Shown here: piece by piece, positions 4,962 to 27,427 of the stretch | How positions within the stretch are numbered: the stretch's first letter is position 1 | How the letters are laid out: each line of letters starts with the position of its first letter | DNA from: a virus | Virus record (IMG/VR): IMGVR_UViG_3300046012_000660 | Length of the DNA: 41,064 nucleotides | Direction: 5' to 3' (one strand) | Notes under the pieces: generated by a model | Told to the model about the DNA's origin: nothing | Databases searched by the model: none | The model's input: only the letters and a program-made list of their open reading frames with translations | Program-made: the position numbers and the translations under genes

Positions 4962-5147
4962 TCAACATGTCCATTGGATCTTCTTAGTTTTAAGATACCA
5001 CTCGGCAAATTCATCTAAATCTGGACAATAACCAAATTCATCTTCAAATTCCCCTGATAAATCCTCGTAGGCGCTTTGCAGTGCTTCCGATTCTTGTTCT
5101 CTGAGTTGATTCCAATGGACGTCATCATTAACATTAAACTTTTCCAT
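4962..5147 (-). CDS. Hypothetical acidic protein (61 aa)
   Basis: ORF only. Confidence 0.5.
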   Translation of the reverse strand: MEKFNVNDDVHWNQLREQESEALQSAYEDLSGEFEDEFGYCPDLDEFAEWYLKTKKIQWTC

Positions 5148-5174
5148 ATTTTAACATTTCCCCTATGTTATTCC

Positions 5175-5984
5175 CTATCGGGTGCTTAACATATCCATTG
5201 GTTCGGCTTTAACAAGAACCATATTCTTGTCAGATTCAATTTTTTCTTCAACCCATTTTAGATAAGACTTAGAGAATCTGTCAGCATTTTTAATTGCTTG
5301 GTTGATGGTTTCTTCGGAAGTCTTCTTGCTTTTCTCGGAGATAAACGAAACGAAATCATTGAGGTCATAATCCATATTCTCTATGGATTTGAATGTTTCC
5401 TTGAATTTATTAGAAGCATCAATGTTATCAATGGACTTTGCCTCACCAGAGGAAGTTTCAATTGTTTCGATGTTTTCTTTTTTATCTTTTTCTTCTTCAT
5501 CTAGCTCTCCTTCAACATATGCCATTCCAATAACATCAGGAAACAGTCTACGCGCTAACCTAGATAGCGCCCTAGCAAAACACATATCAGATGGATATTT
5601 TTCCCACCCGCCATTTGGTTTAACAAGTCCCGCTTTTCTAGCATCTTCGAGAGAAAAAGAGACTTCGCAGCTCTCTCCCGTATCTTTTCGAGTGCCGACA
5701 ATAATTGATCTCTGATCGTTACTGTCTATCTTAAGCTTATGGCCAGCTCTTCGGATCATCGCGTTCATTAGCTGAGGAGCAATCGTAATCTTCCCCATGA
5801 TATTAGAGAAGCCACCGAATAGGGCTGACATGATAGGGACATTGAGTTCCCTGGCGTACATCGCAATAGAGAAGGCTCCAGGAAACCCCCCTAGCTTATC
5901 TATAAATTTACTCTCAACGGCTTGCTTAGCCATTACTTCAATGGCTGTAATTTCTGCTTGAGTTGGTATTAAATCTTTGCTCAT
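5175..5984 (-). CDS. recT: RecT-family single-strand annealing protein
   Basis: ...GGWEKYPSDMCFARALSRLARRLFPDVIGMAYVEGE... matches the RecT core as I remember it. An acidic C-terminal tail follows. The start at 5984 makes an ATGA overlap with the upstream micro-ORF; an alternative ATG lies at 5993. Confidence 0.7.
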   Translation of the reverse strand: MSKDLIPTQAEITAIEVMAKQAVESKFIDKLGGFPGAFSIAMYARELNVPIMSALFGGFSNIMGKITIAPQLMNAMIRRAGHKLKIDSNDQRSIIVGTRKDTGESCEVSFSLEDARKAGLVKPNGGWEKYPSDMCFARALSRLARRLFPDVIGMAYVEGELDEEEKDKKENIETIETSSGEAKSIDNIDASNKFKETFKSIENMDYDLNDFVSFISEKSKKTSEETINQAIKNADRFSKSYLKWVEEKIESDKNMVLVKAEPMDMLSTR

Positions 5985-6154
5985 ACATCCCATCCTTTTC
6001 GTGTTACATCTTCTTGTATAAATTGTGTCTGCTCGATCAGCTTATTCTTGATTCTCTCAAGATTCGCAATTTCCTCTTCAATCTCATCAATCTGATCATA
6101 GACTGAATCTAAAAGGATCTCGTCTCTGCTGGGTCTATAGTAGGAGGCAACCAT
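5981..6154 (-). CDS. Small coiled-coil protein (57 aa), absent from the ORF track
   Basis: Hand translation gives MVASYYRPSRDEILLDSVYDQIDEIEEEIANLERIKNKLIEQTQFIQEDVTRKGWDV. It overlaps the upstream gene by TAATG and the downstream gene by ATGA. Confidence 0.45.
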   Translation of the reverse strand: MVASYYRPSRDEILLDSVYDQIDEIEEEIANLERIKNKLIEQTQFIQEDVTRKGWDV

Positions 6155-6798
6155 TATTTCCTCCTCACAACAAACTTCTTCCCCTTCACGATCTTCACCC
6201 CAGGAATTTCCTTCTTCCCTAGATCAATATGTTTCTGTAAGAGCTTTTCATCAACAACCCAATACTCATCTGGAATCAGATCCACATCAACAATCTCAAA
6301 CGAAAGCTCTTCCTTAAAATATGTCGTTGCCTTAGCGCTGTGAACATTTCTAGCGTCACTAGGGATCACAATATCTACCCCTAACTTAGCTGAAAGCTCT
6401 TTCACGGACTCCTCAGCCACTTTCATTTTCTCTTCTTCTTTCATATGATAAGTAGCGATCTTAACTTTAACATCATGCTCAGCCCTTGAAAGGATCTCTT
6501 GCAATCCCTTGGCAGAGTCATTGATCATCTGAATCAAACGTCTAGCAGGCTCTCCGGCCTTCTTTCTCAAGTCCTCGATCGCCTTGTCTAGATTCCGGAT
6601 ATCAGCCGTTATATCTAAAGCAACGCCACACGCTGATGAATCATCAACGGTTAGGTTCTTAGCCATCAGAGATAGCTTGCTGATTGTAGGGAGGTGTTTT
6701 TCGATTTCAGAAATTGCCGGATGTCTATCATCTGGCAGCACATCGTAATCTTCTTTTAGAAAATCGAAGAAGTCTGTATTGTCTTTTGTATCATTCAT
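6154..6798 (-). CDS. Siphovirus Gp157-like protein, a common partner of RecT modules
   Basis: Coiled-coil centre and a C-terminus ...IPDEYWVVDEKLLQKHIDLGKKEIPGVKIV... like the Gp157 family as I remember it. It sits between the exonuclease and RecT genes. Confidence 0.45.
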   Translation of the reverse strand: MNDTKDNTDFFDFLKEDYDVLPDDRHPAISEIEKHLPTISKLSLMAKNLTVDDSSACGVALDITADIRNLDKAIEDLRKKAGEPARRLIQMINDSAKGLQEILSRAEHDVKVKIATYHMKEEEKMKVAEESVKELSAKLGVDIVIPSDARNVHSAKATTYFKEELSFEIVDVDLIPDEYWVVDEKLLQKHIDLGKKEIPGVKIVKGKKFVVRRK

Positions 6799-6898
6799 TG
6801 GCTCCTACCTTTGTTTGATTTTTCTAGTGTACTATTCCTTTTAGCCCGACGTTGACGCGTCGGGTTTTTCATTTACATTCACCATTGTAAAATGGCTT

Positions 6899-7483
6899 TC
6901 ATTTATTAGTCAAGTGGATATATAGATTATAGGCAGCTAGCGCCGCCGAAGTTAGCCCCTTGGTTATTTCGTATTCCCATACTTTAGGGTAAAGTCCATT
7001 TTGGTCAAGTTGCACGAAAAAGCATGTTTTTTCAATCTCTATTCCATTCAGATCGGCTAAAATGGCATAAAAGGCAGCCTGAAGAGGCCATTTAACGGGA
7101 TCTTGGGCTACAGTACATTTAAAATCGATCAGATAAGACTTTTCAGATGAACCTAAGCATGCAAGCATGTCTATAGACCCCGTGAGCTTCATTGGCTCGT
7201 AATAGATCCTTAAATCTGTTGTAATCGGCTTAACTGATATAGACTTCTCCCACTCTAAATAAGACTTTACATACCCATCTTCTTTGGCTGATGTGGGGAT
7301 AAACTCATCATTAACATGGGCAGAGATTGCGGCGTGAACGGCTGTGCCAAGATCAGCCTTGCGCTGAAGCACTTCTTCATCGATAGCCTGCATTGGATAG
7401 CACCATTTGCCATTCTGGCCCATTGTGGGGAGCATAGATAGGATTGTGCTTACTCGAATCCATTTGGGGTCTGGTTGTTCCAT
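6899..7483 (-). CDS. PD-(D/E)XK (RecB/Cas4-like) exonuclease
   Basis: Motifs GTAVHAAI, GSIDML...YLIDFKC and QLQAAFYA. GGAG SD lies 4-5 nt before the ATG. Confidence 0.65.
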   Translation of the reverse strand: MEQPDPKWIRVSTILSMLPTMGQNGKWCYPMQAIDEEVLQRKADLGTAVHAAISAHVNDEFIPTSAKEDGYVKSYLEWEKSISVKPITTDLRIYYEPMKLTGSIDMLACLGSSEKSYLIDFKCTVAQDPVKWPLQAAFYAILADLNGIEIEKTCFFVQLDQNGLYPKVWEYEITKGLTSAALAAYNLYIHLTNK

Positions 7484-7500
7484 TTTTCTCCAATTTCCTG

Positions 7501-7532
7501 TTGATTATATATAACTATGAACATATAATCAA
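7501..7532. promoter_or_regulatory. Palindromic divergent sigma70-like promoter pair and likely operator
   Basis: The sequence ttgattatat-N12-atataatcaa reads TTGATT-N17-TATAAT on both the plus and the minus strand. It lies in the 73-bp gap between the leftward ATG at 7483 and the rightward ATG at 7557. Confidence 0.6.
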
Positions 7533-7556
7533 GTGTATAAATGAAAATAGGTAATT

Positions 7557-7832
7557 ATGACTCTTAACGAATGGCTTAAAGAAAACAATATGAGCATGAA
7601 CGCTCTAGCTAAACTCTGCGGTCTATCGACAACAACTATTTTGAACATAACATTAGACAAGCCCGTTGTTTTTAGGACTATCAGAAAATTAATGCAGCTC
7701 ACCAAAAACTTCCGCATACCGATAACACCTGAGATGTTTCCAAGGGTTTATCTTCATGGTAAGGATGAGATAATCACTGGGTCTATGGCCTATGCAATTG
7801 AGATTAGGAAATATCTAAATCGCAAGAAATAG
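7557..7832 (+). CDS. XRE/Cro-type helix-turn-helix regulator (91 aa)
   Basis: The N-terminus MTLNEWLKENNMSMNALAKLCGLSTTTILNI has an HTH pattern. It is the first gene rightward of the switch region. Confidence 0.65.
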   Translation: MTLNEWLKENNMSMNALAKLCGLSTTTILNITLDKPVVFRTIRKLMQLTKNFRIPITPEMFPRVYLHGKDEIITGSMAYAIEIRKYLNRKK

Positions 7833-7918
7833 AAAAGGGCGCTTTTACACGCCCTAAAATAAGAAAAGGGAATAGCCGACATGGCTAAACTCACCTTATT
7901 TCGTGGTCTCATTTTGGG

Positions 7919-7947
7919 GCAAGATAAAAAGATATCTGGCTTTTTTT
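7919..7947 (+). terminator. Rho-independent terminator candidate
   Basis: Stem gcaagata/tatctggc (8 bp, one mismatch), loop aaaaga, then T7. Confidence 0.45.
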
Positions 7948-8010
7948 GAAAAGGTTTGGGTAGGATAACCCTTACAAAGCAAGAAGGCCCGAACTTACGT
8001 CCGAGCCAAC

Positions 8011-8048
8011 TTTAAGATAACGAGTAGTGATATACCGGTTATCTTAAA
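8011..8048. repeat. Perfect 11-bp inverted repeat TTTAAGATAAC-N16-GTTATCTTAAA
   Basis: Read directly from the sequence. It lies 76 bp upstream of the putative replication gene start. Confidence 0.8.
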
Positions 8049-8123
8049 TGTGGCCATTAATTTCAAGCAATAGAAATTAAATAAAAGAAAAAGTTTGTGG
8101 TCTTCTTCAAAAAAGGAGACCCA

Positions 8124-8885
8124 ATGATCTTATCAATCGCAACACTTCTAGACGCCGCCGGCCAATACTACACTCTCACGCCCTCTGCTCAAGCTGTTCT
8201 AAATGAACTCATTGATGGAGAAAAAAAACGTCGTGATGGGATCTTTACTAAAATCTGGTATGGGAAACTCCACTTTCAACGCAAGACGAAATATTCTGCT
8301 GAGGCCATTGAGGACGCTTGGAAGCTTCTATTAAAAAAGAAAATGATAAATATTATTCCAAGACCAGGATGTACGCATGTTTTTGAAATAAATAGTTTAG
8401 TTTATGACTTTTGCACCCAACTGCGCTTTCTTAACTTCCACATAAGTCCAAAAAAATATTTGAAAGAGGTAATGGAGGGACTTGCCGACAACCCTCTTTT
8501 CTTGGTCCATAAATATAACGCCTACAATAGGAGAAAAACTAAAAAAGTACCCCCCTCAAATCCGCAAAAAGTACCCCCTATTAGGACTTCTTCTTTAGTA
8601 GGACTTAGATCTAGAGTACGTATTAGAATACGTGCGCCAGATTCGGAATCTAAAAGAGTCCCTGAAATACCGAAAATTCTACCCATTGTGAGAAGCTTTT
8701 CGTTTTTTAATGATTACGAAAAATATCGCATCTCTCAGGACTTTGAATATGTCGACATTTTAGCAGCAAAACAAGATATGGACAACTACCAATATAAATT
8801 CTTGAAGACAATAGACTCGGAAGCTGCTTATTTTATTAATGCTCTAAATCGACAAAAAAAACGGAGAATGAGTTATGCAATTTAA
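8124..8885 (+). CDS. Putative replication initiator or winged-helix DNA-binding protein
   Basis: GGAG SD 5 nt before the ATG at 8124; the track's GTG at 8097 is less likely. The position after the switch region and the internal iteron-like repeats recall lambda O. There is no strong motif match. Confidence 0.4.
   Translation: MILSIATLLDAAGQYYTLTPSAQAVLNELIDGEKKRRDGIFTKIWYGKLHFQRKTKYSAEAIEDAWKLLLKKKMINIIPRPGCTHVFEINSLVYDFCTQLRFLNFHISPKKYLKEVMEGLADNPLFLVHKYNAYNRRKTKKVPPSNPQKVPPIRTSSLVGLRSRVRIRIRAPDSESKRVPEIPKILPIVRSFSFFNDYEKYRISQDFEYVDILAAKQDMDNYQYKFLKTIDSEAAYFINALNRQKKRRMSYAI
8542..8633. repeat. Iteron-like repeat cluster (candidate origin)
   Basis: AAAAAGTACCCCC occurs twice (8542, 8566), TAGGACTT occurs twice (8582, 8599), and the palindrome ACGTATT-AG-AATACGT lies at 8618-8633. 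All are inside the CDS. Confidence 0.45.
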
Positions 8886-9066
8886 GAACCACGAAGACCA
8901 ACAAGCATTTGAACTCTGGGCTTTTGGAAGGACTGGAGTGGATTATGAGATACAATTAATGCACACATGGAACTCAAAGCATGGGAATAAAGTTTGGATA
9001 ACTCCAAGCGAAACGATCCCACTATCCTTGAAAAAGATGTACGCGCTCTATTTGGAGTCGAAATAA
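8875..9066 (+). CDS. Hypothetical protein (63 aa)
   Basis: ORF that overlaps the end of the upstream gene. Confidence 0.45.
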   Translation: MQFKNHEDQQAFELWAFGRTGVDYEIQLMHTWNSKHGNKVWITPSETIPLSLKKMYALYLESK

Positions 9067-9461
9067 TGCTTTTTACAACTACGACCATTCCACCGCAAAT
9101 TCATCAGTATTTTACTGAAAAAATGCTATCCCTTCCAACCCCAAAGATGCGCGATGATAGCGCAACCCTTCGACGAGTTTACTTTTGGATAAAGACGAAG
9201 CTTATGAAAAAATGCGTTAAATATCCTGAATGGAAAAAAGAGTGCGAGCAATTAGAAAAACAATTTTTGGAGTTATATGAGCGGACGTTGGCTAAAGAAA
9301 AAGAGCTTGAAACAGAAAAAGGACACAAAACTCAAGAACCCTTCTACTGGATTACAGTTGCTAATAGAAGCAACCAAGCAATATTTAGAGGATTGCAACG
9401 CAACAGCAACAAGATTTCCCTCGAACTCTGGAGAAACAATGAGGTTTCGGCGGTATTCTGA
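9066..9461 (+). CDS. Hypothetical protein (131 aa)
   Basis: TAATG coupling at 9064-9068; the track's start at 8994 overlaps the previous ORF. Confidence 0.5.
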   Translation: MLFTTTTIPPQIHQYFTEKMLSLPTPKMRDDSATLRRVYFWIKTKLMKKCVKYPEWKKECEQLEKQFLELYERTLAKEKELETEKGHKTQEPFYWITVANRSNQAIFRGLQRNSNKISLELWRNNEVSAVF

Positions 9462-9512
9462 GCTTCCAGAAAAAGAATAGATGATGTATCCAAAGCCTAA
9501 AGGAGCAACTCA

Positions 9513-9644
9513 ATGACCCTTGTCCAAGCCAAGATCAAAATTAAACGATGGTGCAAAGCTGTCTTTCTAAGAAGTTCAGTTTGCCCATTCTGCAAGGAAA
9601 CGTTTAACCAAAGAAGCCATCCAAGATTTAAGAGGAAGAGATAG
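9513..9644 (+). CDS. Small basic Cys-containing protein (43 aa), absent from the ORF track
   Basis: AGGAG SD 7 nt upstream. Translation: MTLVQAKIKIKRWCKAVFLRSSVCPFCKETFNQRSHPRFKRKR. Confidence 0.45.
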   Translation: MTLVQAKIKIKRWCKAVFLRSSVCPFCKETFNQRSHPRFKRKR

Positions 9645-9806
9645 ATGGACAAAAAGATGAGAAAGCAAGTCGGGAAACCTCTTAAAAAGGCTGAAAAGCT
9701 AGTGAATAAGGCCGAGAAGGCTAACGCAAAGCTTGCCAACTATGACGAAAAGGTCAGAGATCCTATGATTGCTAAATACAAGAAGATGAAGGGCCGTTGT
9801 AAATAA
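9645..9806 (+). CDS. Small Lys-rich protein (53 aa), absent from the ORF track
   Basis: The ATG follows the previous TAG directly. Translation: MDKKMRKQVGKPLKKAEKLVNKAEKANAKLANYDEKVRDPMIAKYKKMKGRCK. Confidence 0.4.
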   Translation: MDKKMRKQVGKPLKKAEKLVNKAEKANAKLANYDEKVRDPMIAKYKKMKGRCK

Positions 9807-9862
9807 TCTACTCTGCTGCTATGGATTAATTTTAGAGACTAACTATCAACTAGGAGGTTGTT

Positions 9863-11122
9863 ATGGTTTCTAAAATAAGTATAAGTCTAATAACACTGTT
9901 CATGAGTTCTTTATTAGCTCATGATAACTATAGCCAGATTTCAATAAATGTTAACCCCTTTGAGTCAGCAGCCTCTTCTGTCAAGTTTGATCATCAATCA
10001 CATTTGTACGCTCCTAATGGGGATGTTCTTCTTCTACATTTGTCTCATTCTCCTCACCTTAAATTCTTCAAGAATGAAGTAGGATTGGGATATCGAAAGA
10101 TCTTCCCTGCTTTTGGGATGGGTCTAAATTTCTATTATATGAACATGACGAAGCCTGGTGTTTTCATTCACCAGCTAAGCCCTGGCATTGAGGTGTTTTA
10201 TAACAACTTTCAGTTTTCTTATAATACCTATCTACCCACTCAAATGAAGAAAAGCTTTAAGAAAGGAACGCTATATCACAGTCTGGTTTCTGAGTTGGGA
10301 ATTAACTATAAACCAACAAAAGACCTAATGCTGGGGCTATTGCCATTCTTTGACCATTCCAAAAAAGAGTGGGGATTGAATTCCAAGGTGACTTACACGA
10401 TCAAAGATAAGTTTGAGTTTGCCGTGTCTCCCTATCTAAAAAAATCAGGGAACGGATGCCTATTTTCTTTTGGCATTAACTTTGGTGGTGAGAAAACTAG
10501 AGCCAATCAGTCGATTCATAGATCCAATGATTTTTCTTATCTCATCGAGAAGAGGATTCCTAAGATCTATACGCTAGAGCTTAAGCCTGCTTATGCGCCA
10601 GCTCCCATAATTATGCCGGCTATACAACCTGTTATTTTACCTCCAATAGAGCAGGAAGAGGAGTCTTTGCCTAAAGAAACAATTGAAGAAAAAAGCAATA
10701 GTGCAAAACCTGTTGTAGAGCCTATAAAAATTGAAGTTCCTCCAGAAAAACCGTATTCGTGGTGGGACAATATCCCCTTTTTTAACTACAAAGGGATAGG
10801 AATAGCTCAAGAGTCTTTGCAACAACCGATCAGAATAGTAGAGCCGTTAAGCGAATCTAGCTCTTTTGAGATGTTATCCTCTGCTTCTAGAGAGTCTTCT
10901 TCGAGTAGCTGGGAATATATGAACTCAGGCTCATCGGACTTGAGTTCTTCAAGTGGAGATGAGTTTTATGAGGTACCATTTCCTTCAAATAAGTTTTATG
11001 AGCCGGAAACTTGGGAGCCATACCAACCTCCAGAGCATCATGCTTCGTCATCATTTAATGGTGGTAATGAACTGCACATCTGGGAAGATTATGTCGATGC
11101 TAAGGATGTCCTTAATCTTTAA
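9863..11122 (+). CDS. Inverse-autotransporter (intimin/invasin beta-domain)-like outer-membrane protein with a disordered C-terminal region
   Basis: Signal peptide MVSKISISLITLFMSSLLA. NEVGLGYRKIFPAFGMGLNFYYMNM...GIEVFYNNFQFSYNTYLP matches the remembered IAT beta-barrel pattern GLG.R....G.N.FYD....G.E....L..S.N.Y.P. The C-terminal 170 aa are Pro/Glu/Ser-rich. Confidence 0.55.
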   Translation: MVSKISISLITLFMSSLLAHDNYSQISINVNPFESAASSVKFDHQSHLYAPNGDVLLLHLSHSPHLKFFKNEVGLGYRKIFPAFGMGLNFYYMNMTKPGVFIHQLSPGIEVFYNNFQFSYNTYLPTQMKKSFKKGTLYHSLVSELGINYKPTKDLMLGLLPFFDHSKKEWGLNSKVTYTIKDKFEFAVSPYLKKSGNGCLFSFGINFGGEKTRANQSIHRSNDFSYLIEKRIPKIYTLELKPAYAPAPIIMPAIQPVILPPIEQEEESLPKETIEEKSNSAKPVVEPIKIEVPPEKPYSWWDNIPFFNYKGIGIAQESLQQPIRIVEPLSESSSFEMLSSASRESSSSSWEYMNSGSSDLSSSSGDEFYEVPFPSNKFYEPETWEPYQPPEHHASSSFNGGNELHIWEDYVDAKDVLNL

Positions 11123-19526: not shown

Positions 19527-22181
19527 ATGCCTGATCAAATCTATATTGGTAACTTTGCAAAAGGTCTTACCACTAGTAGACTTCCGTTTGTCATAGATAA
19601 CGATTCCTTTCCGACAATGTTCAATTTCTATTCATGGAGAGGAAGGGCAAAAAGAAAAAGGGGTACGATTTTCTTAGGACAACTCCAGATTCAGGAGCAA
19701 ATTGCCGCGGTGCCGCTTGCATGGCAACTTGCCAGTTTTAATTTGGTTGCAGGGGCCGGAAATCTCATTTCTCATTACAGCCTTGGATCAAGCGCCTCGA
19801 TTACACCAGGATCGTTGGGTTTGATTGTAGGGGCTAATACCTATACAGATTTGAATATGGATGGGACTTTGCAGGGAACGCCCGCAGGTTCTGGAACCAT
19901 TAACTATACGTCAGGTACTTTTACAATCTCAGGAGGAGGTGCAGGTGCAGTTACAGGAACATTTTCTTATTATCCTGGAAACCCTGTTATGGGCCTTCGT
20001 GATTTGGCTTATAGTGCTGTCGCCAATATTCCTCCTGTGCGCTCTCTTTATCCAAAACTTTTAGCATTTGACACCACCAAGGCATATCAGATTAATCAAA
20101 CTACATCTGGACAGAACTTCTATAATGTAAGCTATTACAAGCAGACAAACAATCCTGTGACATGGAGTGGTCAGGACTATCAACAGTTTTGGACGACCAA
20201 CTATCAAGCGGCGTTATGGGCAACAAACAACAAGCCAGGATTTAATTTCGTTAATGGGACATATACATCCGGGAGTGGCACTGCGGTCATCACATTTAAT
20301 TTTAAATCCGGAGGAGTCAATTACACATCTCTGGTTGTAGGAGACAAGCTTTGGTTTAATGAATGGTCTACCGGCGGCAGTACGATCAATGGTTTAACAG
20401 GAACCGTTACAACTGCGACAGATGCAGCCAATGGAAACTACGTCGTAACTTTTACAGGAAATCAGACTGTTGCAGGAACAGGAATAGCTCAAACACTTAC
20501 AGCAAGTATCACGGGCCAAGATGGCATTAAATGGTATGATGGTGACCCAACTAGTGCGACTGGACTCCCTACAACCACCGCATTAGGCTGGGTCAATTTT
20601 GCCCCTCCTTTAACGGCTGCAACGGTCTCAATTGATGACGAGACGGCTGCTAAGTATTACTTAGTCGGTGCGTTATTAATCGTTCCATTCAAGGATCGTT
20701 TATTGTTTTTAAGTCCATGGATTCAGACAAGCACAGGTAATCCTATTCAGCTTTCAGATACGGCTTTGTGGAGCTGGAATGGCACACCATATTATTCAAC
20801 ATTGACGCCTGCTGGAGAAACTAGCGATGTTAGAGCTTATTACCAGGATCAAACAGGACTCGGTGGAAATCTTCCTGCTGGAACAGGTCAGCCGATTGCC
20901 ACCGTTGCTAATAACGAAGATGTTTTGATTATTGGATTTGGGGGAACAGGCCGTAAGACACGGTTTGTTTACACAAGCAATGATTTACAGCCATTTTTAT
21001 TCTATAACATCAACTCCGAGCTTCCATCCGATAGTACATTTTCTGCCATTACTCTTGATAAAGGCGCTTTAGATATCGGGGCCTATGGAATTGCTATGAC
21101 GGATCAGCAATCGAGCCAAAGGATAGATTTAGATATTCCAGATCAAGTGTTCCAAATTCAGGCGCTAAACAATGGCGCTTTGAGAGTCAATGCAGTTAGA
21201 GATTTTTACAGGGAATGGGTTTATTTTGCATATCCTGTAAGTAATAGCAAATGGAAGTTCCCGACTCAGACGTTTTTATTCAATTATCGAGATAATACGT
21301 GGGGAGTTCAATACGAGAACTTTACAGCTCATGGAACATATCGCCCCGTGTTGAAAAAGTCTTGGTCAACAATTGGATATCAGTCTTGGAATACTTGGAG
21401 AGAGCCTTGGAATTCCGGAGCGAATTCACCGCAGTTCCCGAGTATTGTAGCCGGCAATCCCCAAGGGTATGTTTTAACAAAGGGCCAAGGAACTGGCGAG
21501 GGAATATCCGGGACTATTCAAGCCATAGCGAGTTCTGGGGGAAATACTCAGATTACCTCCATTAATCATTGCGTTCGGCCTGGAGACTATCTTTATCTTT
21601 CAGGCATTTTAGGGCCAACTTCATATAATGGACTGATCGGAAGGGTTGAATCCACCTCAGATGCTAATACATTTGTCATAGACTTGCCATTTGATGCGAC
21701 AACTTATCTTGGTCTTGGCAAGTTTACTCGATTATCCCAACCGCTTTTACAGACGAAACAATTTGCAGTCTATTGGGATCAGGGCCGGCAAACAAGATTA
21801 TCTGCTCAGAAATATTTAATGGATTACACGGCCAGCGCACAAGTTACAGTCAATGTATACTTATCACAAGATCCCGATGATATATGGAATACGCCACAGC
21901 CCATTAATAAAACTTCTGCTTTAGTATACTCGCAGCTTATGTATACCTGTCCTGAGTCTACTAATATCGGCCTCACACCCGCTAATACAAATCTTCAAAT
22001 GCCAACAGCAGAAGGTCAGTTCCAAATTTGGCATAGATTTAATACATCTTTGATCGGAGACAGTGTGCAGATCGGAATTACACTCAGTGATGCACAAATG
22101 AGAAACTTGACTTACGCGACGAGTGAGATTACTCTACAGGGGATGCACCTTACGGTGGATAAAGCGAGTCATTTAGCGTGA
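19527..22181 (+). CDS. Large tail protein, possible nozzle or tail tubular B-like (884 aa)
   Basis: Supported by size, position and the N-terminus ...GNFAKGLTTSRLPFVIDNDSFPTMFNFYSWRGRAKRKRG. It contains inserted copies of the beta-module. Confidence 0.45.
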   Translation: MPDQIYIGNFAKGLTTSRLPFVIDNDSFPTMFNFYSWRGRAKRKRGTIFLGQLQIQEQIAAVPLAWQLASFNLVAGAGNLISHYSLGSSASITPGSLGLIVGANTYTDLNMDGTLQGTPAGSGTINYTSGTFTISGGGAGAVTGTFSYYPGNPVMGLRDLAYSAVANIPPVRSLYPKLLAFDTTKAYQINQTTSGQNFYNVSYYKQTNNPVTWSGQDYQQFWTTNYQAALWATNNKPGFNFVNGTYTSGSGTAVITFNFKSGGVNYTSLVVGDKLWFNEWSTGGSTINGLTGTVTTATDAANGNYVVTFTGNQTVAGTGIAQTLTASITGQDGIKWYDGDPTSATGLPTTTALGWVNFAPPLTAATVSIDDETAAKYYLVGALLIVPFKDRLLFLSPWIQTSTGNPIQLSDTALWSWNGTPYYSTLTPAGETSDVRAYYQDQTGLGGNLPAGTGQPIATVANNEDVLIIGFGGTGRKTRFVYTSNDLQPFLFYNINSELPSDSTFSAITLDKGALDIGAYGIAMTDQQSSQRIDLDIPDQVFQIQALNNGALRVNAVRDFYREWVYFAYPVSNSKWKFPTQTFLFNYRDNTWGVQYENFTAHGTYRPVLKKSWSTIGYQSWNTWREPWNSGANSPQFPSIVAGNPQGYVLTKGQGTGEGISGTIQAIASSGGNTQITSINHCVRPGDYLYLSGILGPTSYNGLIGRVESTSDANTFVIDLPFDATTYLGLGKFTRLSQPLLQTKQFAVYWDQGRQTRLSAQKYLMDYTASAQVTVNVYLSQDPDDIWNTPQPINKTSALVYSQLMYTCPESTNIGLTPANTNLQMPTAEGQFQIWHRFNTSLIGDSVQIGITLSDAQMRNLTYATSEITLQGMHLTVDKASHLA

Positions 22182-25913: not shown

Positions 25914-25986
25914 TGGGAATACTTGGATTTGAACCAAGGCACTACAAATTATGAGTTTGTTGCTCTACCAACTGAGCTATATTCCC
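25914..25986 (-). tRNA. tRNA with anticodon CAT (elongator Met, or Ile2 if lysidine-modified); no encoded CCA
   Basis: Hand-folded cloverleaf: GGGAATA / TA / GCTC-AGTTGGTA-GAGC / A / ACAAA-CTCATAA-TTTGT / AGTGC / CTTGG-TTCAAAT-CCAAG / TATTCCC plus discriminator A. G1-C72 is paired and the anticodon stem is AT-rich, which argues against an initiator. Confidence 0.9.
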
Positions 25987-26694
25987 TTACTCGTCTTCTT
26001 CTATCCATTTATAAGATTTGTTTTTTAAGATTCTGTTAATGGCCTGTTCTGACATTTCAAACATTTCGCATAATTGTTTTATCGTATATGACTTCCCTAG
26101 AGAACGAATCGTCTTTACATCGGCTGTTCTCTTGAAATTCCTCATCATTTTTTTCAAATACTCTGGGGATTTTCTTAGACAACCACAGCTCTGCATGTCG
26201 CCTAAATTATTGATGTTTTTTTCTCGCACAGCTCCACATTCGCAAATAACTTCATAAAATGAGTTAAACTTTTTTGGATTATTTGTTTTAGGCCTCATGC
26301 CTAAAAATTTTGTAATTGTGTATTTACCTATTTTTTTACCAATCCAGTTCTTTCGAGCTTTGCCCCTATTTTTTTCTTTAAGACAACCACAAGATTTTAT
26401 CTTGTTCTCGAACAGATCTTTCCCATTGTTGTATTTTATATTTCCGCATGAACATTTGCATTCATATCTTTTTTTAGATGGAATGAATTTTATGCACTTT
26501 AGTTTTCCAAATTTTTTGCCTATTACTTGATATTTTATTTTTGAGCATCCGCAAGTTAGTGTTTTTTTAAAGTCTGATCGTGAGATTATCTTTTCATTCC
26601 CGCAGTCGCATTTAACAAGGATCTTCCCCTGATCTAATTGTTTTAAACAGACTAATTTTCCATATCTTTTTTCAGTAAGATCAACTTTATTCAT
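25987..26694 (-). CDS. Triple zinc-ribbon repeat protein with a C-terminal HTH
   Basis: Three repeats of +.GKL........C.C.CG........(S/T)CGC. The C-terminus ...YTIKQLCEMFEMSEQAINRILKN is HTH-like. Confidence 0.6.
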   Translation of the reverse strand: MNKVDLTEKRYGKLVCLKQLDQGKILVKCDCGNEKIISRSDFKKTLTCGCSKIKYQVIGKKFGKLKCIKFIPSKKRYECKCSCGNIKYNNGKDLFENKIKSCGCLKEKNRGKARKNWIGKKIGKYTITKFLGMRPKTNNPKKFNSFYEVICECGAVREKNINNLGDMQSCGCLRKSPEYLKKMMRNFKRTADVKTIRSLGKSYTIKQLCEMFEMSEQAINRILKNKSYKWIEEDE

Positions 26695-27427
26695 CTAAAG
26701 AAAATGGTTGGTGATTTTTGAAATTATAAATCGAAATCAGAAGTTCCATCCATTGCTTTGAGTTTGCTTGAGGTTTTAATTCAAACCATTTTATAGAGAG
26801 CTTCTGTAACAAGATTTTTATTGGGATTCCACTGATAATTAAATATCTAAATGCCGAAGTGAAATAAGCGCTTTTAATCATGCTAAGAGGGGCAAGCCTT
26901 CGTTCTTTGGCCCAACATAAAAGCTCTTCATATGAGTCGATTAGGGTTTTATTTTGTATGTTATCGGAGGGGAATATAAATTTTCCCTTCTGAATTAAAT
27001 TACAAACTCCATGAGAAGATGTACCCAGAAGTAGGCAAAGCATTGCTTTGACATCAAGTTCTAGTTTTTTCATATATTCAATTAACAAAATGTAGTCTTT
27101 CAAATGATCTTTTACGGCATAAAATTTTATGGCATCTTTTACACTTCCACGCTTTTGGATAAGATTTGCATTTAAAATATGGGAATAGTCTACATCTCCC
27201 AATACATAGTAGATTTCTAATCCCAAATCCTGAGCTGCTGCCAGACGGTGTTGTCCATCAATAACTTCCATTTTTTCATTAACTATGATAGGGTGAAATG
27301 CCAGAAGATTATTTTCCTGAATTATATGCTTCAGGTTTTCAATATGCGATTTTTGCTTTTCTCTGTTGAAGCTTACGAATTTAAATATTGAGTAGTCGGT
27401 TGTCGACTGTATTTGTGGTTTTTTCAT
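26687..27427 (-). CDS. ParB N-terminal domain / DGQHR-motif protein
   Basis: ...FHPIIVNEKMEVIDGQHRLAAAQDLGLEIYYVL... is the ParB/Srx-fold signature (the DGQHR motif also seen in DndB-like proteins). Confidence 0.7.
   Translation of the reverse strand: MKKPQIQSTTDYSIFKFVSFNREKQKSHIENLKHIIQENNLLAFHPIIVNEKMEVIDGQHRLAAAQDLGLEIYYVLGDVDYSHILNANLIQKRGSVKDAIKFYAVKDHLKDYILLIEYMKKLELDVKAMLCLLLGTSSHGVCNLIQKGKFIFPSDNIQNKTLIDSYEELLCWAKERRLAPLSMIKSAYFTSAFRYLIISGIPIKILLQKLSIKWFELKPQANSKQWMELLISIYNFKNHQPFSLDE

Follow-up and report, generated by a model that had tools for sequence, protein, structure and literature searches.

The closest described counterpart of the locus analyzed here is the Pc/Pr promoter pair of pLS20, a conjugative plasmid of Bacillus subtilis. 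In this pair the two promoters are opposed and superimposed, the -10 box of each falling on the -35 box of the other, and one of the divergent genes encodes a helix-turn-helix (HTH) regulator (PMC4207663). The coincidence of the boxes was documented with a mapped transcription start, and Ramachandran et al. (2014) argued that polymerase can occupy a single promoter of the pair at a time (PMC4207663). Pr is weak, deviates from the consensus and depends on the regulator, a tetramer which acts through two operators and DNA looping (PMC4207663). Bidirectional overlapping promoter regions are also found with LysR-type regulators, for example at ilvY-ilvC (PMC11495319). The Warman-type promoters transcribe divergently owing to the symmetry of their core elements; their -10 elements are shared or abutting and their starts are 7-25 bp apart, 18 bp being the commonest distance (10.1101/2020.01.31.928960; PMC12825309). 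Competition between opposed polymerases was shown experimentally for these promoters (PMC12825309), while competition between overlapping promoters in general has been both modelled and shown experimentally and depends on promoter occupancy (PMC3167631, PMC12825309). The PR/PRM-OR and PL arrangement of phage lambda combines leftward recombination genes with a rightward operon starting with a Cro-like HTH gene. The lambda early promoters are placed back to back, about 80 bp apart.

The window, which is the whole stretch of DNA analyzed, comprises 41,064 nucleotides of the IMG/VR record IMGVR_UViG_3300046012_000660 and represents an essentially complete podophage-like genome (~41.7 kb). At 7501-7532 it carries a 32-bp palindromic core with two opposed sigma-70/sigma-A-type promoters predicted in silico. 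The -35 of each coincides with the -10 of the other, as in pLS20, and here also one divergent gene encodes an HTH regulator. In contrast to the weak Pr of pLS20 (PMC4207663), both promoters of the core are near-consensus and identical, and no operator repeats or looping partner were found in the window; a candidate operator repeat was identified in relatives only. The LysR-type regions share with the core the overlapping bidirectional promoters between a regulator gene and a divergent operon, but the phage regulator is a 91-aa XRE/Cro-type protein carrying neither HTH_1 nor LysR_substrate. Symmetry of core elements as a source of divergent transcription is common to the Warman-type promoters and, by prediction, to the core, whereas the -10 hexamers of the core (7504-7509 and 7524-7529) are separated by 14 bp, each lies over the -35 of the other, and the predicted starts are ~39 bp apart. 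The gene order is lambda-like, but there is no cI between the promoters and no tripartite operator, and the two promoters overlap fully. Tandem operator copies, a CI-type repressor or an integrase, which would mark a lambda-type switch, were not found (36 larger ORFs scanned).

The mirrored core and its gene context

The core reads TTGATTATAT-N12-ATATAATCAA, and its two arms are complementary at 10 of 10 positions. A promoter consensus scan found TTGATT-N17-TATAAT on either strand (plus, 7501..7529; minus, 7532..7504). Each of the two scores 10/12 against the sigma-70-type consensus, which the host presumably uses. The core lies in a 73-bp gap (7484-7556), the sole divergent intergenic gap of the early region, with the exonuclease ATG at 7483 (minus strand) on the left and the ATG of the HTH gene at 7557 on the right. 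The sequence, coordinates, arms and identical reading of both strands given in the preliminary description were exact, as was its placement of the core between a leftward operon (ATG 7483, GGAG) and the HTH gene, and every factual statement in it was correct. The features of the region are as follows.

7501..7532, no strand: mirrored core with both promoters (scan, inverted repeat, shuffles, conservation); expected to be untranscribed from either promoter
7501-7510: left arm, TTGATTATAT
7511-7522: centre, 12 bp, ATAACTATGAAC
7523-7532: right arm, ATATAATCAA
7501..7506, plus: -35 of the rightward promoter P_R, TTGATT (scan); T, G and A at positions 1, 3 and 4 invariant in alignment A3
7524..7529, plus: -10 of P_R, TATAAT (scan); TAnAAT invariant in A3
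~7536 (7535-7537), plus: predicted P_R start, placed by the usual 7-nt distance to the -10
7527..7532, minus: -35 of the leftward promoter P_L, TTGATT, reverse complement of AATCAA (scan); C60 and A62 invariant in A3
7504..7509, minus: -10 of P_L, TATAAT, reverse complement of ATTATA (scan); T38, A39 and A34 invariant in A3
7497, minus: predicted P_L start, a G
7484..7497, minus: predicted 14-nt leftward leader, GAAATTGGAGAAAA, with GGAG Shine-Dalgarno at 7491..7488, four bases before the ATG
6899..7483, minus: PD-(D/E)XK exonuclease, 194 aa, first leftward gene of the recombination operon
6154-6798, leftward operon: possibly Gam-like protein of 214 aa (weak likeness)
5175-5993, leftward operon: RecT
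7557..7832, plus: 91-aa Cro/C1 (XRE)-type HTH protein, presumed early regulator, first rightward gene
7836..7855, minus: terminator-like hairpin with T-run, on the minus strand only (pattern match only)

The hexamers overlap by 3 bp at each end of the core, the -35 of P_R with the -10 of P_L at 7504-7506 and the -10 of P_R with the -35 of P_L at 7527-7529. This overlap is contained in TTGATTATA, in which the -35 TTGATT shares three bases with ATTATA, complementary to TATAAT; TTGATTATA best reconciles TTGACA with the complement of TATAAT. Given a 17-bp spacer on either strand, the arrangement takes 6+17+6+3 = 32 bp and is necessarily palindromic over 9 of the 10 arm bases.

The symmetry of the core was compared with dinucleotide shuffles. 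Perfect 10-bp inverted repeats with a spacer of at most 20 bp occur three times in the window; shuffles gave 1.43 +/- 1.5, and at least three were reached in 43 of 200, so that such repeats are not enriched and the inverted repeat of the core, taken alone, is not beyond chance. Promoter-like matches are not enriched as a class either (18 in 5000-11000 against 13.6 +/- 3.8). Mirrored pairs in which each strand scores at least 10/12 are rarer, with one in the window and an occurrence in only 2 of 300 whole-window (41 kb) shuffles. Another mirrored pair, at 19900-19932 with 9/12 on each strand, is intragenic and at chance level. The half-site of the core has no other copy in the window beyond chance, with up to 1 mismatch allowed, and no significant repeats or repeat family were found in 7300-8200. 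A role of the core as RNA was also considered and rejected. Both predicted starts are situated outside the core, which should thus not be transcribed; Rfam gave no match for it, and its DNA hairpin is weak (-4.9 kcal/mol, z = -2.25).

The window encodes a P22-type portal, a large terminase, an SU10-type adaptor, capsid and tail-fibre proteins, a DNA methylase and one tRNA-Met. The tRNA-Met gene (25914-25986, minus strand) adjoins HNH endonuclease-like and ParB-like genes (26687-27427, minus strand, in the same region). No DNA match to the phage was obtained among 50,697 phage records, and a profile search of 185,579 representative genomes gave no relatives of the exonuclease. For the exonuclease, the start at ATG 7483 (194 aa) was favoured over the 174-aa form of the gene caller with an internal Met start, because the homologs align from residue 1 and share the DPKWIRVS motif. 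A MazG-like protein is also encoded leftward of the core. A Pfam and PHROGs scan of the 36 larger ORFs, which took in only a minority of the ORFs below ~120 aa, detected no integrase and no CI-type repressor with S24 peptidase domain. With no integrase found among these, a virulent and a plasmid-prophage lifestyle are both possible.

On the rightward side the HTH gene is followed by a ~290-bp gap and then by uncharacterised early genes. The 91-aa protein matched HTH_26 marginally (22.3 bits against a cut-off of 22), while 11 of 13 members of its family matched HTH_3 with a best E of 7e-7, and profile matches in PDB included Aca11, the prophage Lp1 protein 11 and HipB. A word-index search with the HTH protein matched itself only, and its homologs were obtained by tblastn in the loci fetched with the exonuclease. 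Two terminator-like hairpins on the minus strand (7855..7836 and 8007..7986) are present in the non-coding gap (7833-8124), together with an imperfect inverted repeat of 22 nt (8005-8026 / 8033-8054) whose core of 11-12 bp is perfect. This gap, for which Rfam gave no match, might serve as an origin or a second control region, or encode a small leftward RNA. For the 262-aa ORF after it, ATG 8125, with AAGGAG upstream, is probably the start rather than GTG 8097. Further rightward, a 419-aa protein (9863-11122, plus strand) shows a signal-peptide-like N-terminus and a Ser/Pro-rich tail; its match to the inverse-autotransporter beta domain is weak and below threshold, and among 5.8 billion proteins it has three homologs only. 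The protein is possibly a moron acting at the host surface, which would hint at a diderm host.

Conservation of the core in related phages

Related loci were taken from IMG/VR, from metagenomes of JGI and from other assemblies. In metagenomes 55 homologs of the exonuclease were found, a large number of them on contigs of ~40 kb; judged from the sample identifiers, the source samples of the lineage are presumably peat, soil and lake. In loci with an exonuclease identity of at least 49%, a homolog of the HTH protein (31-44% identity) is divergent from the leftward operon. The best plus-strand and the best minus-strand promoter of the divergent region stand in the mirrored register of the window in 9 of the first 11 distinct lineages, and L036 and L112 are further cases. 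As the preliminary description had proposed a search of related phages for the dyad, it can be stated that the mirrored geometry is kept in ten distinct related lineages, which share ancestry and so do not count as independent events. The mirrored layout is absent from L007, L035 and L037 and from the distant L009-L014, and is therefore not obligatory. In L035, an ENA contig of 99.8 kb (~2.4 phage lengths), only P_R is recognisable, as TTGATT-N17-TATTTT; the contig may have been assembled as a concatemer or may contain a prophage in host DNA.

Conservation is concentrated in the arms. Mean pairwise identity is 0.80 in the left arm, 0.90 in the right arm and 0.34, i.e. essentially random, in the 12-bp centre, as calculated from nine elements (eight with a 12-bp centre and L112; L002, with a 13-bp centre, was left out). 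In L006 the arms are identical to those of the window and the centre is unrelated. The tenth arm base (7510/7523) is not conserved. The invariant core columns of alignment A3 are T.GA in the -35 of P_R, TA, TA.AAT in the -10 of P_R, and C.A. Here TA stands at left-arm positions 8-9, inside the P_R spacer, and corresponds to T-12 and A-11 of the P_L -10 (columns T38 and A39), column A34 being T-7 of the same hexamer; C.A follows directly after the P_R -10, in the P_R discriminator, and corresponds to T.G of the P_L -35. As read from this alignment, P_R imposes no constraint on TA or C.A, and both are key bases of the predicted P_L. The leftward -10 occurs as TATAAT, TATAGT, TATATT and TATGCT, with T-12, A-11 and T-7 kept in all.

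The three bases shared by the hexamers vary among lineages (ATT, ACT, AAT, AGC). To judge from their sequences, these variants trade the rightward -35, for which TTGACT is nearer to the consensus, against the leftward -10, and most relatives therefore score higher for P_R (12-15) than for P_L (9-11); symmetry is exact in the window, L006 and L112. The start of the first leftward gene is situated ~25 nt from the core in every lineage, behind a GGAG-type Shine-Dalgarno, and the TTTTCC/CTCC leader is kept even where a gene for a small membrane protein or another gene precedes the exonuclease gene. The conserved positions together with this fixed leftward distance are what two working promoters would predict. 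The claim of a symmetric, fully overlapping divergent promoter pair thus gains support from the comparison, in which the -35 and -10 are conserved on both strands around a free centre.

The exact layout TTGATTATA-N14-TATAATCAA was also searched in viral contigs, and mostly gave chance matches in AT-rich contigs. Divergent ORFs on both sides were present at 3 of 30 matches, and one of these is a true distant relative, L112 (IMGVR_UViG_3300044821_000188, element at 2488-2519), which the DNA pattern thus revealed independently. The exonuclease of L112 has 33% identity, and no similarity was detectable for its 73-aa HTH protein. The arms of L112 are perfect over 14 bp, GTGCTTGATTATAA, with start codons 18-26 nt off on each side; they reach past the hexamers, and polymerase contacts alone do not explain this extension.

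Probable overlapping promoters and rival readings of the symmetry

The core is best understood, with a probability which we put at roughly 0.75, as the early control region of the phage, in which two overlapping, opposed promoters of sigma-70/sigma-A type would compete for polymerase. In this podophage of lambda-like organisation both promoters would be held within one 32-bp core, each -35 overlapping the opposite -10 by 3 bp (TTG-ATT-ATA). P_L, starting near 7497, would drive the exonuclease/RecT recombination operon and P_R, starting near 7536, the Cro-like HTH gene and the genes downstream of it. Since the polymerase sites would coincide, a single orientation could be occupied at a time and the two operons would compete for initiation. 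The footprint of polymerase extends from about -55 to +20 and so spans the whole core either way, for which reason P_L and P_R should be mutually exclusive. The 91-aa HTH protein probably feeds back on the region as a Cro/Aca-like autorepressor, and its operator need not be the arms.

The 38 bp between the predicted starts, G7497 and ~7536, are predicted to be untranscribed, and the predicted rightward leader of the HTH mRNA is ~20 nt long. The minus-strand terminator-like hairpin at 7836..7855 would keep leftward read-in away from the HTH gene and the P_L region. An A-rich box, (T)AAATG(A/G)AA, is conserved at ~+5 to +12 of the rightward transcript in the window (7541-7567) and in relatives. 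In L025, L028 and L023 the ATG of the box shares the HTH reading frame, so that the mRNA would have almost no leader; in the window the box opens an out-of-frame mini-ORF of 8 codons overlapping the HTH start.

The invariant positions are those which RNA polymerase needs on each strand, so the palindrome is best read as a by-product of packing a -35 over an opposite -10. Packing of the hexamers accounts for the symmetry, and a dimeric protein is not needed to explain it.

The preliminary description had proposed such a protein, namely a dimer of the 91-aa HTH protein which, bound to the 10-bp arms, silences the two promoters or biases one, the dyad being mainly an operator and the region a minimal two-way switch. 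Perfect arms next to an XRE-type HTH gene invite this reading, and so does the presence of Aca11 and HipB among the nearest solved relatives of the protein. Aca11 and HipB are autorepressors acting on inverted repeats at their own promoters. The 14-bp arms of L112, going beyond the hexamers, keep the idea alive for that phage. For the window the comparison points the other way. The window and L006 share identical arms, yet their recognition helices are STTTILN and SVGAIHN, and further helices are SHNTISN in L004, PASTIFN in L018 and NELTIKN in L005; across the family the arms are nearly constant while the HTH proteins are only 34-48% identical. Operators of phage regulators would normally be expected to co-vary with the protein, and elements read by the host polymerase would not. 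The polymerase hexamers explain 9 of the 10 arm bases and the tenth varies, and the half-site has no second copy in the window. The arm centres are 22 bp apart, ~two helical turns, which is wide for a small XRE dimer; such dimers usually contact adjacent major grooves. Because the recognition helix differs among phages with identical arms, the palindrome is probably not an operator for the HTH protein; binding of that protein at the arms of the window is not favoured by the comparative data, and we regard the operator reading of the dyad as unlikely. The proposal of a minimal genetic switch of lysis/lysogeny type likewise found no support, as no integrase or CI-type peptidase repressor was detected among the 36 larger ORFs scanned, and no repeated operators were found in the window.

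A different candidate site emerged in five relatives, where the best candidate operator is a direct repeat flanking the P_R -10 at a constant offset of 23 bp, the first copy being placed within the promoter spacer and the second over the rightward +1. The repeat is clearest in L004 (IMGVR_UViG_3300050821_017785), exact over at least 11-12 nt (AAGTAAATGAC[A], P = 0.002) and matching at ~14/15 positions by eye, and is weaker in L002, L036, L025 and L028. These direct repeats are candidate half-sites of an HTH operator and are reminiscent of the direct repeats of the phage P2 C repressor. An equivalent in the window was not significant (P = 0.69).

A reading with a single real promoter, most likely P_R, would treat the mirror image as a non-functional effect of AT-rich symmetry and have the leftward operon transcribed from elsewhere. 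Inherent symmetry of the -10 does create mirror matches (10.1101/2020.01.31.928960), and the P_R -10 is invariant and P_R outscores P_L in most relatives. P_R has no role for the invariant T and A at left-arm positions 8-9 or for C.A, all of them key P_L bases, and the first leftward start codon tracks the core at ~25 nt in every lineage. The consensus scan found no other minus-strand promoter match between 7484 and the hairpin at 7836-7855 from which the leftward operon could be served. Taken together this makes a lone promoter improbable. That the palindrome is a chance product with no function fits the lack of enrichment of such repeats in the window, the weak hairpin and the chance occurrence of TTGATTATA-N14-TATAATCAA in AT-rich viral contigs, but it can practically be dismissed, as ten distinct lineages keep the geometry while the centre diverges, and the core occupies the single divergent gap with a mirrored pair reached in only 2 of 300 shuffles.

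The layout in cellular genomes and its significance

The preliminary description had taken the design for more compact and more symmetric than lambda-type architectures. Unusual compactness or novelty is not borne out; in pLS20 the boxes of Pc and Pr already coincide, and the same 32-bp layout is present at many LysR-type loci. The pattern TTTCCNNTTGANNATAN{14,15}TATAATCAA, derived from the phage family, occurs between divergent genes at 49 loci (L038-L086) of representative (GTDB) genomes, against a chance expectation of ~0.5 to ~10 by a rough, composition-based estimate. Nearly all are in Firmicutes, namely Clostridia or Paenibacillus, where TTGATTATA-N14-TATAATCAA recurs literally. At 22 of the 49 a LysR-type regulator is encoded rightward and a divergent target gene leftward; AraC-type pairs and enzyme pairs are included among the remaining ones. 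Many cellular loci extend the palindrome to TTGATTATAnCAC...GTGnTATAATCAA, and the LysR examples often possess an extra inner palindrome (CAC..GTG), which the phage core lacks. From their sequences these loci appear to share a mirrored promoter/operator design which is conserved in a LysR subfamily of gut Clostridia. With 49 cellular loci showing the layout, the 32-bp design is a recurrent solution in cellular genomes. The layout itself is thus not new; plasmids and many bacterial regulator genes already use such a design, and the core reveals no new regulatory principle.

By its conservation pattern, the core is real and well conserved; it adds to a known class a member of unusual symmetry, from an uncharacterised clade of phages. 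In the symmetric versions (window, L006 and L112) the orientation in which polymerase lands might, as a tentative proposal to which we give little weight, be an unbiased choice which splits early transcription without a repressor, and the Cro-like protein or flanking UP-like tracts might later tilt the balance from outside the arms. If this is true, the core would act on the early gene dosage of the phage as a natural 'orientation-competition' controller, setting the recombination arm against the regulator/replication arm, and the asymmetric relatives with TTGACT/TATAGT variants would represent evolutionary adjustments of this one control.

The phage lineage is known so far from metagenomic and SRA assemblies only. 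It provides a clean natural example of two promoters, predicted to be of full strength, on one polymerase-sized site, and the core could serve synthetic biology as a compact 32-bp bidirectional part. The relatives form a natural variant series trading the rightward -35 against the leftward -10, which would suit quantitative tests of the polymerase competition models (PMC3167631, PMC12825309).
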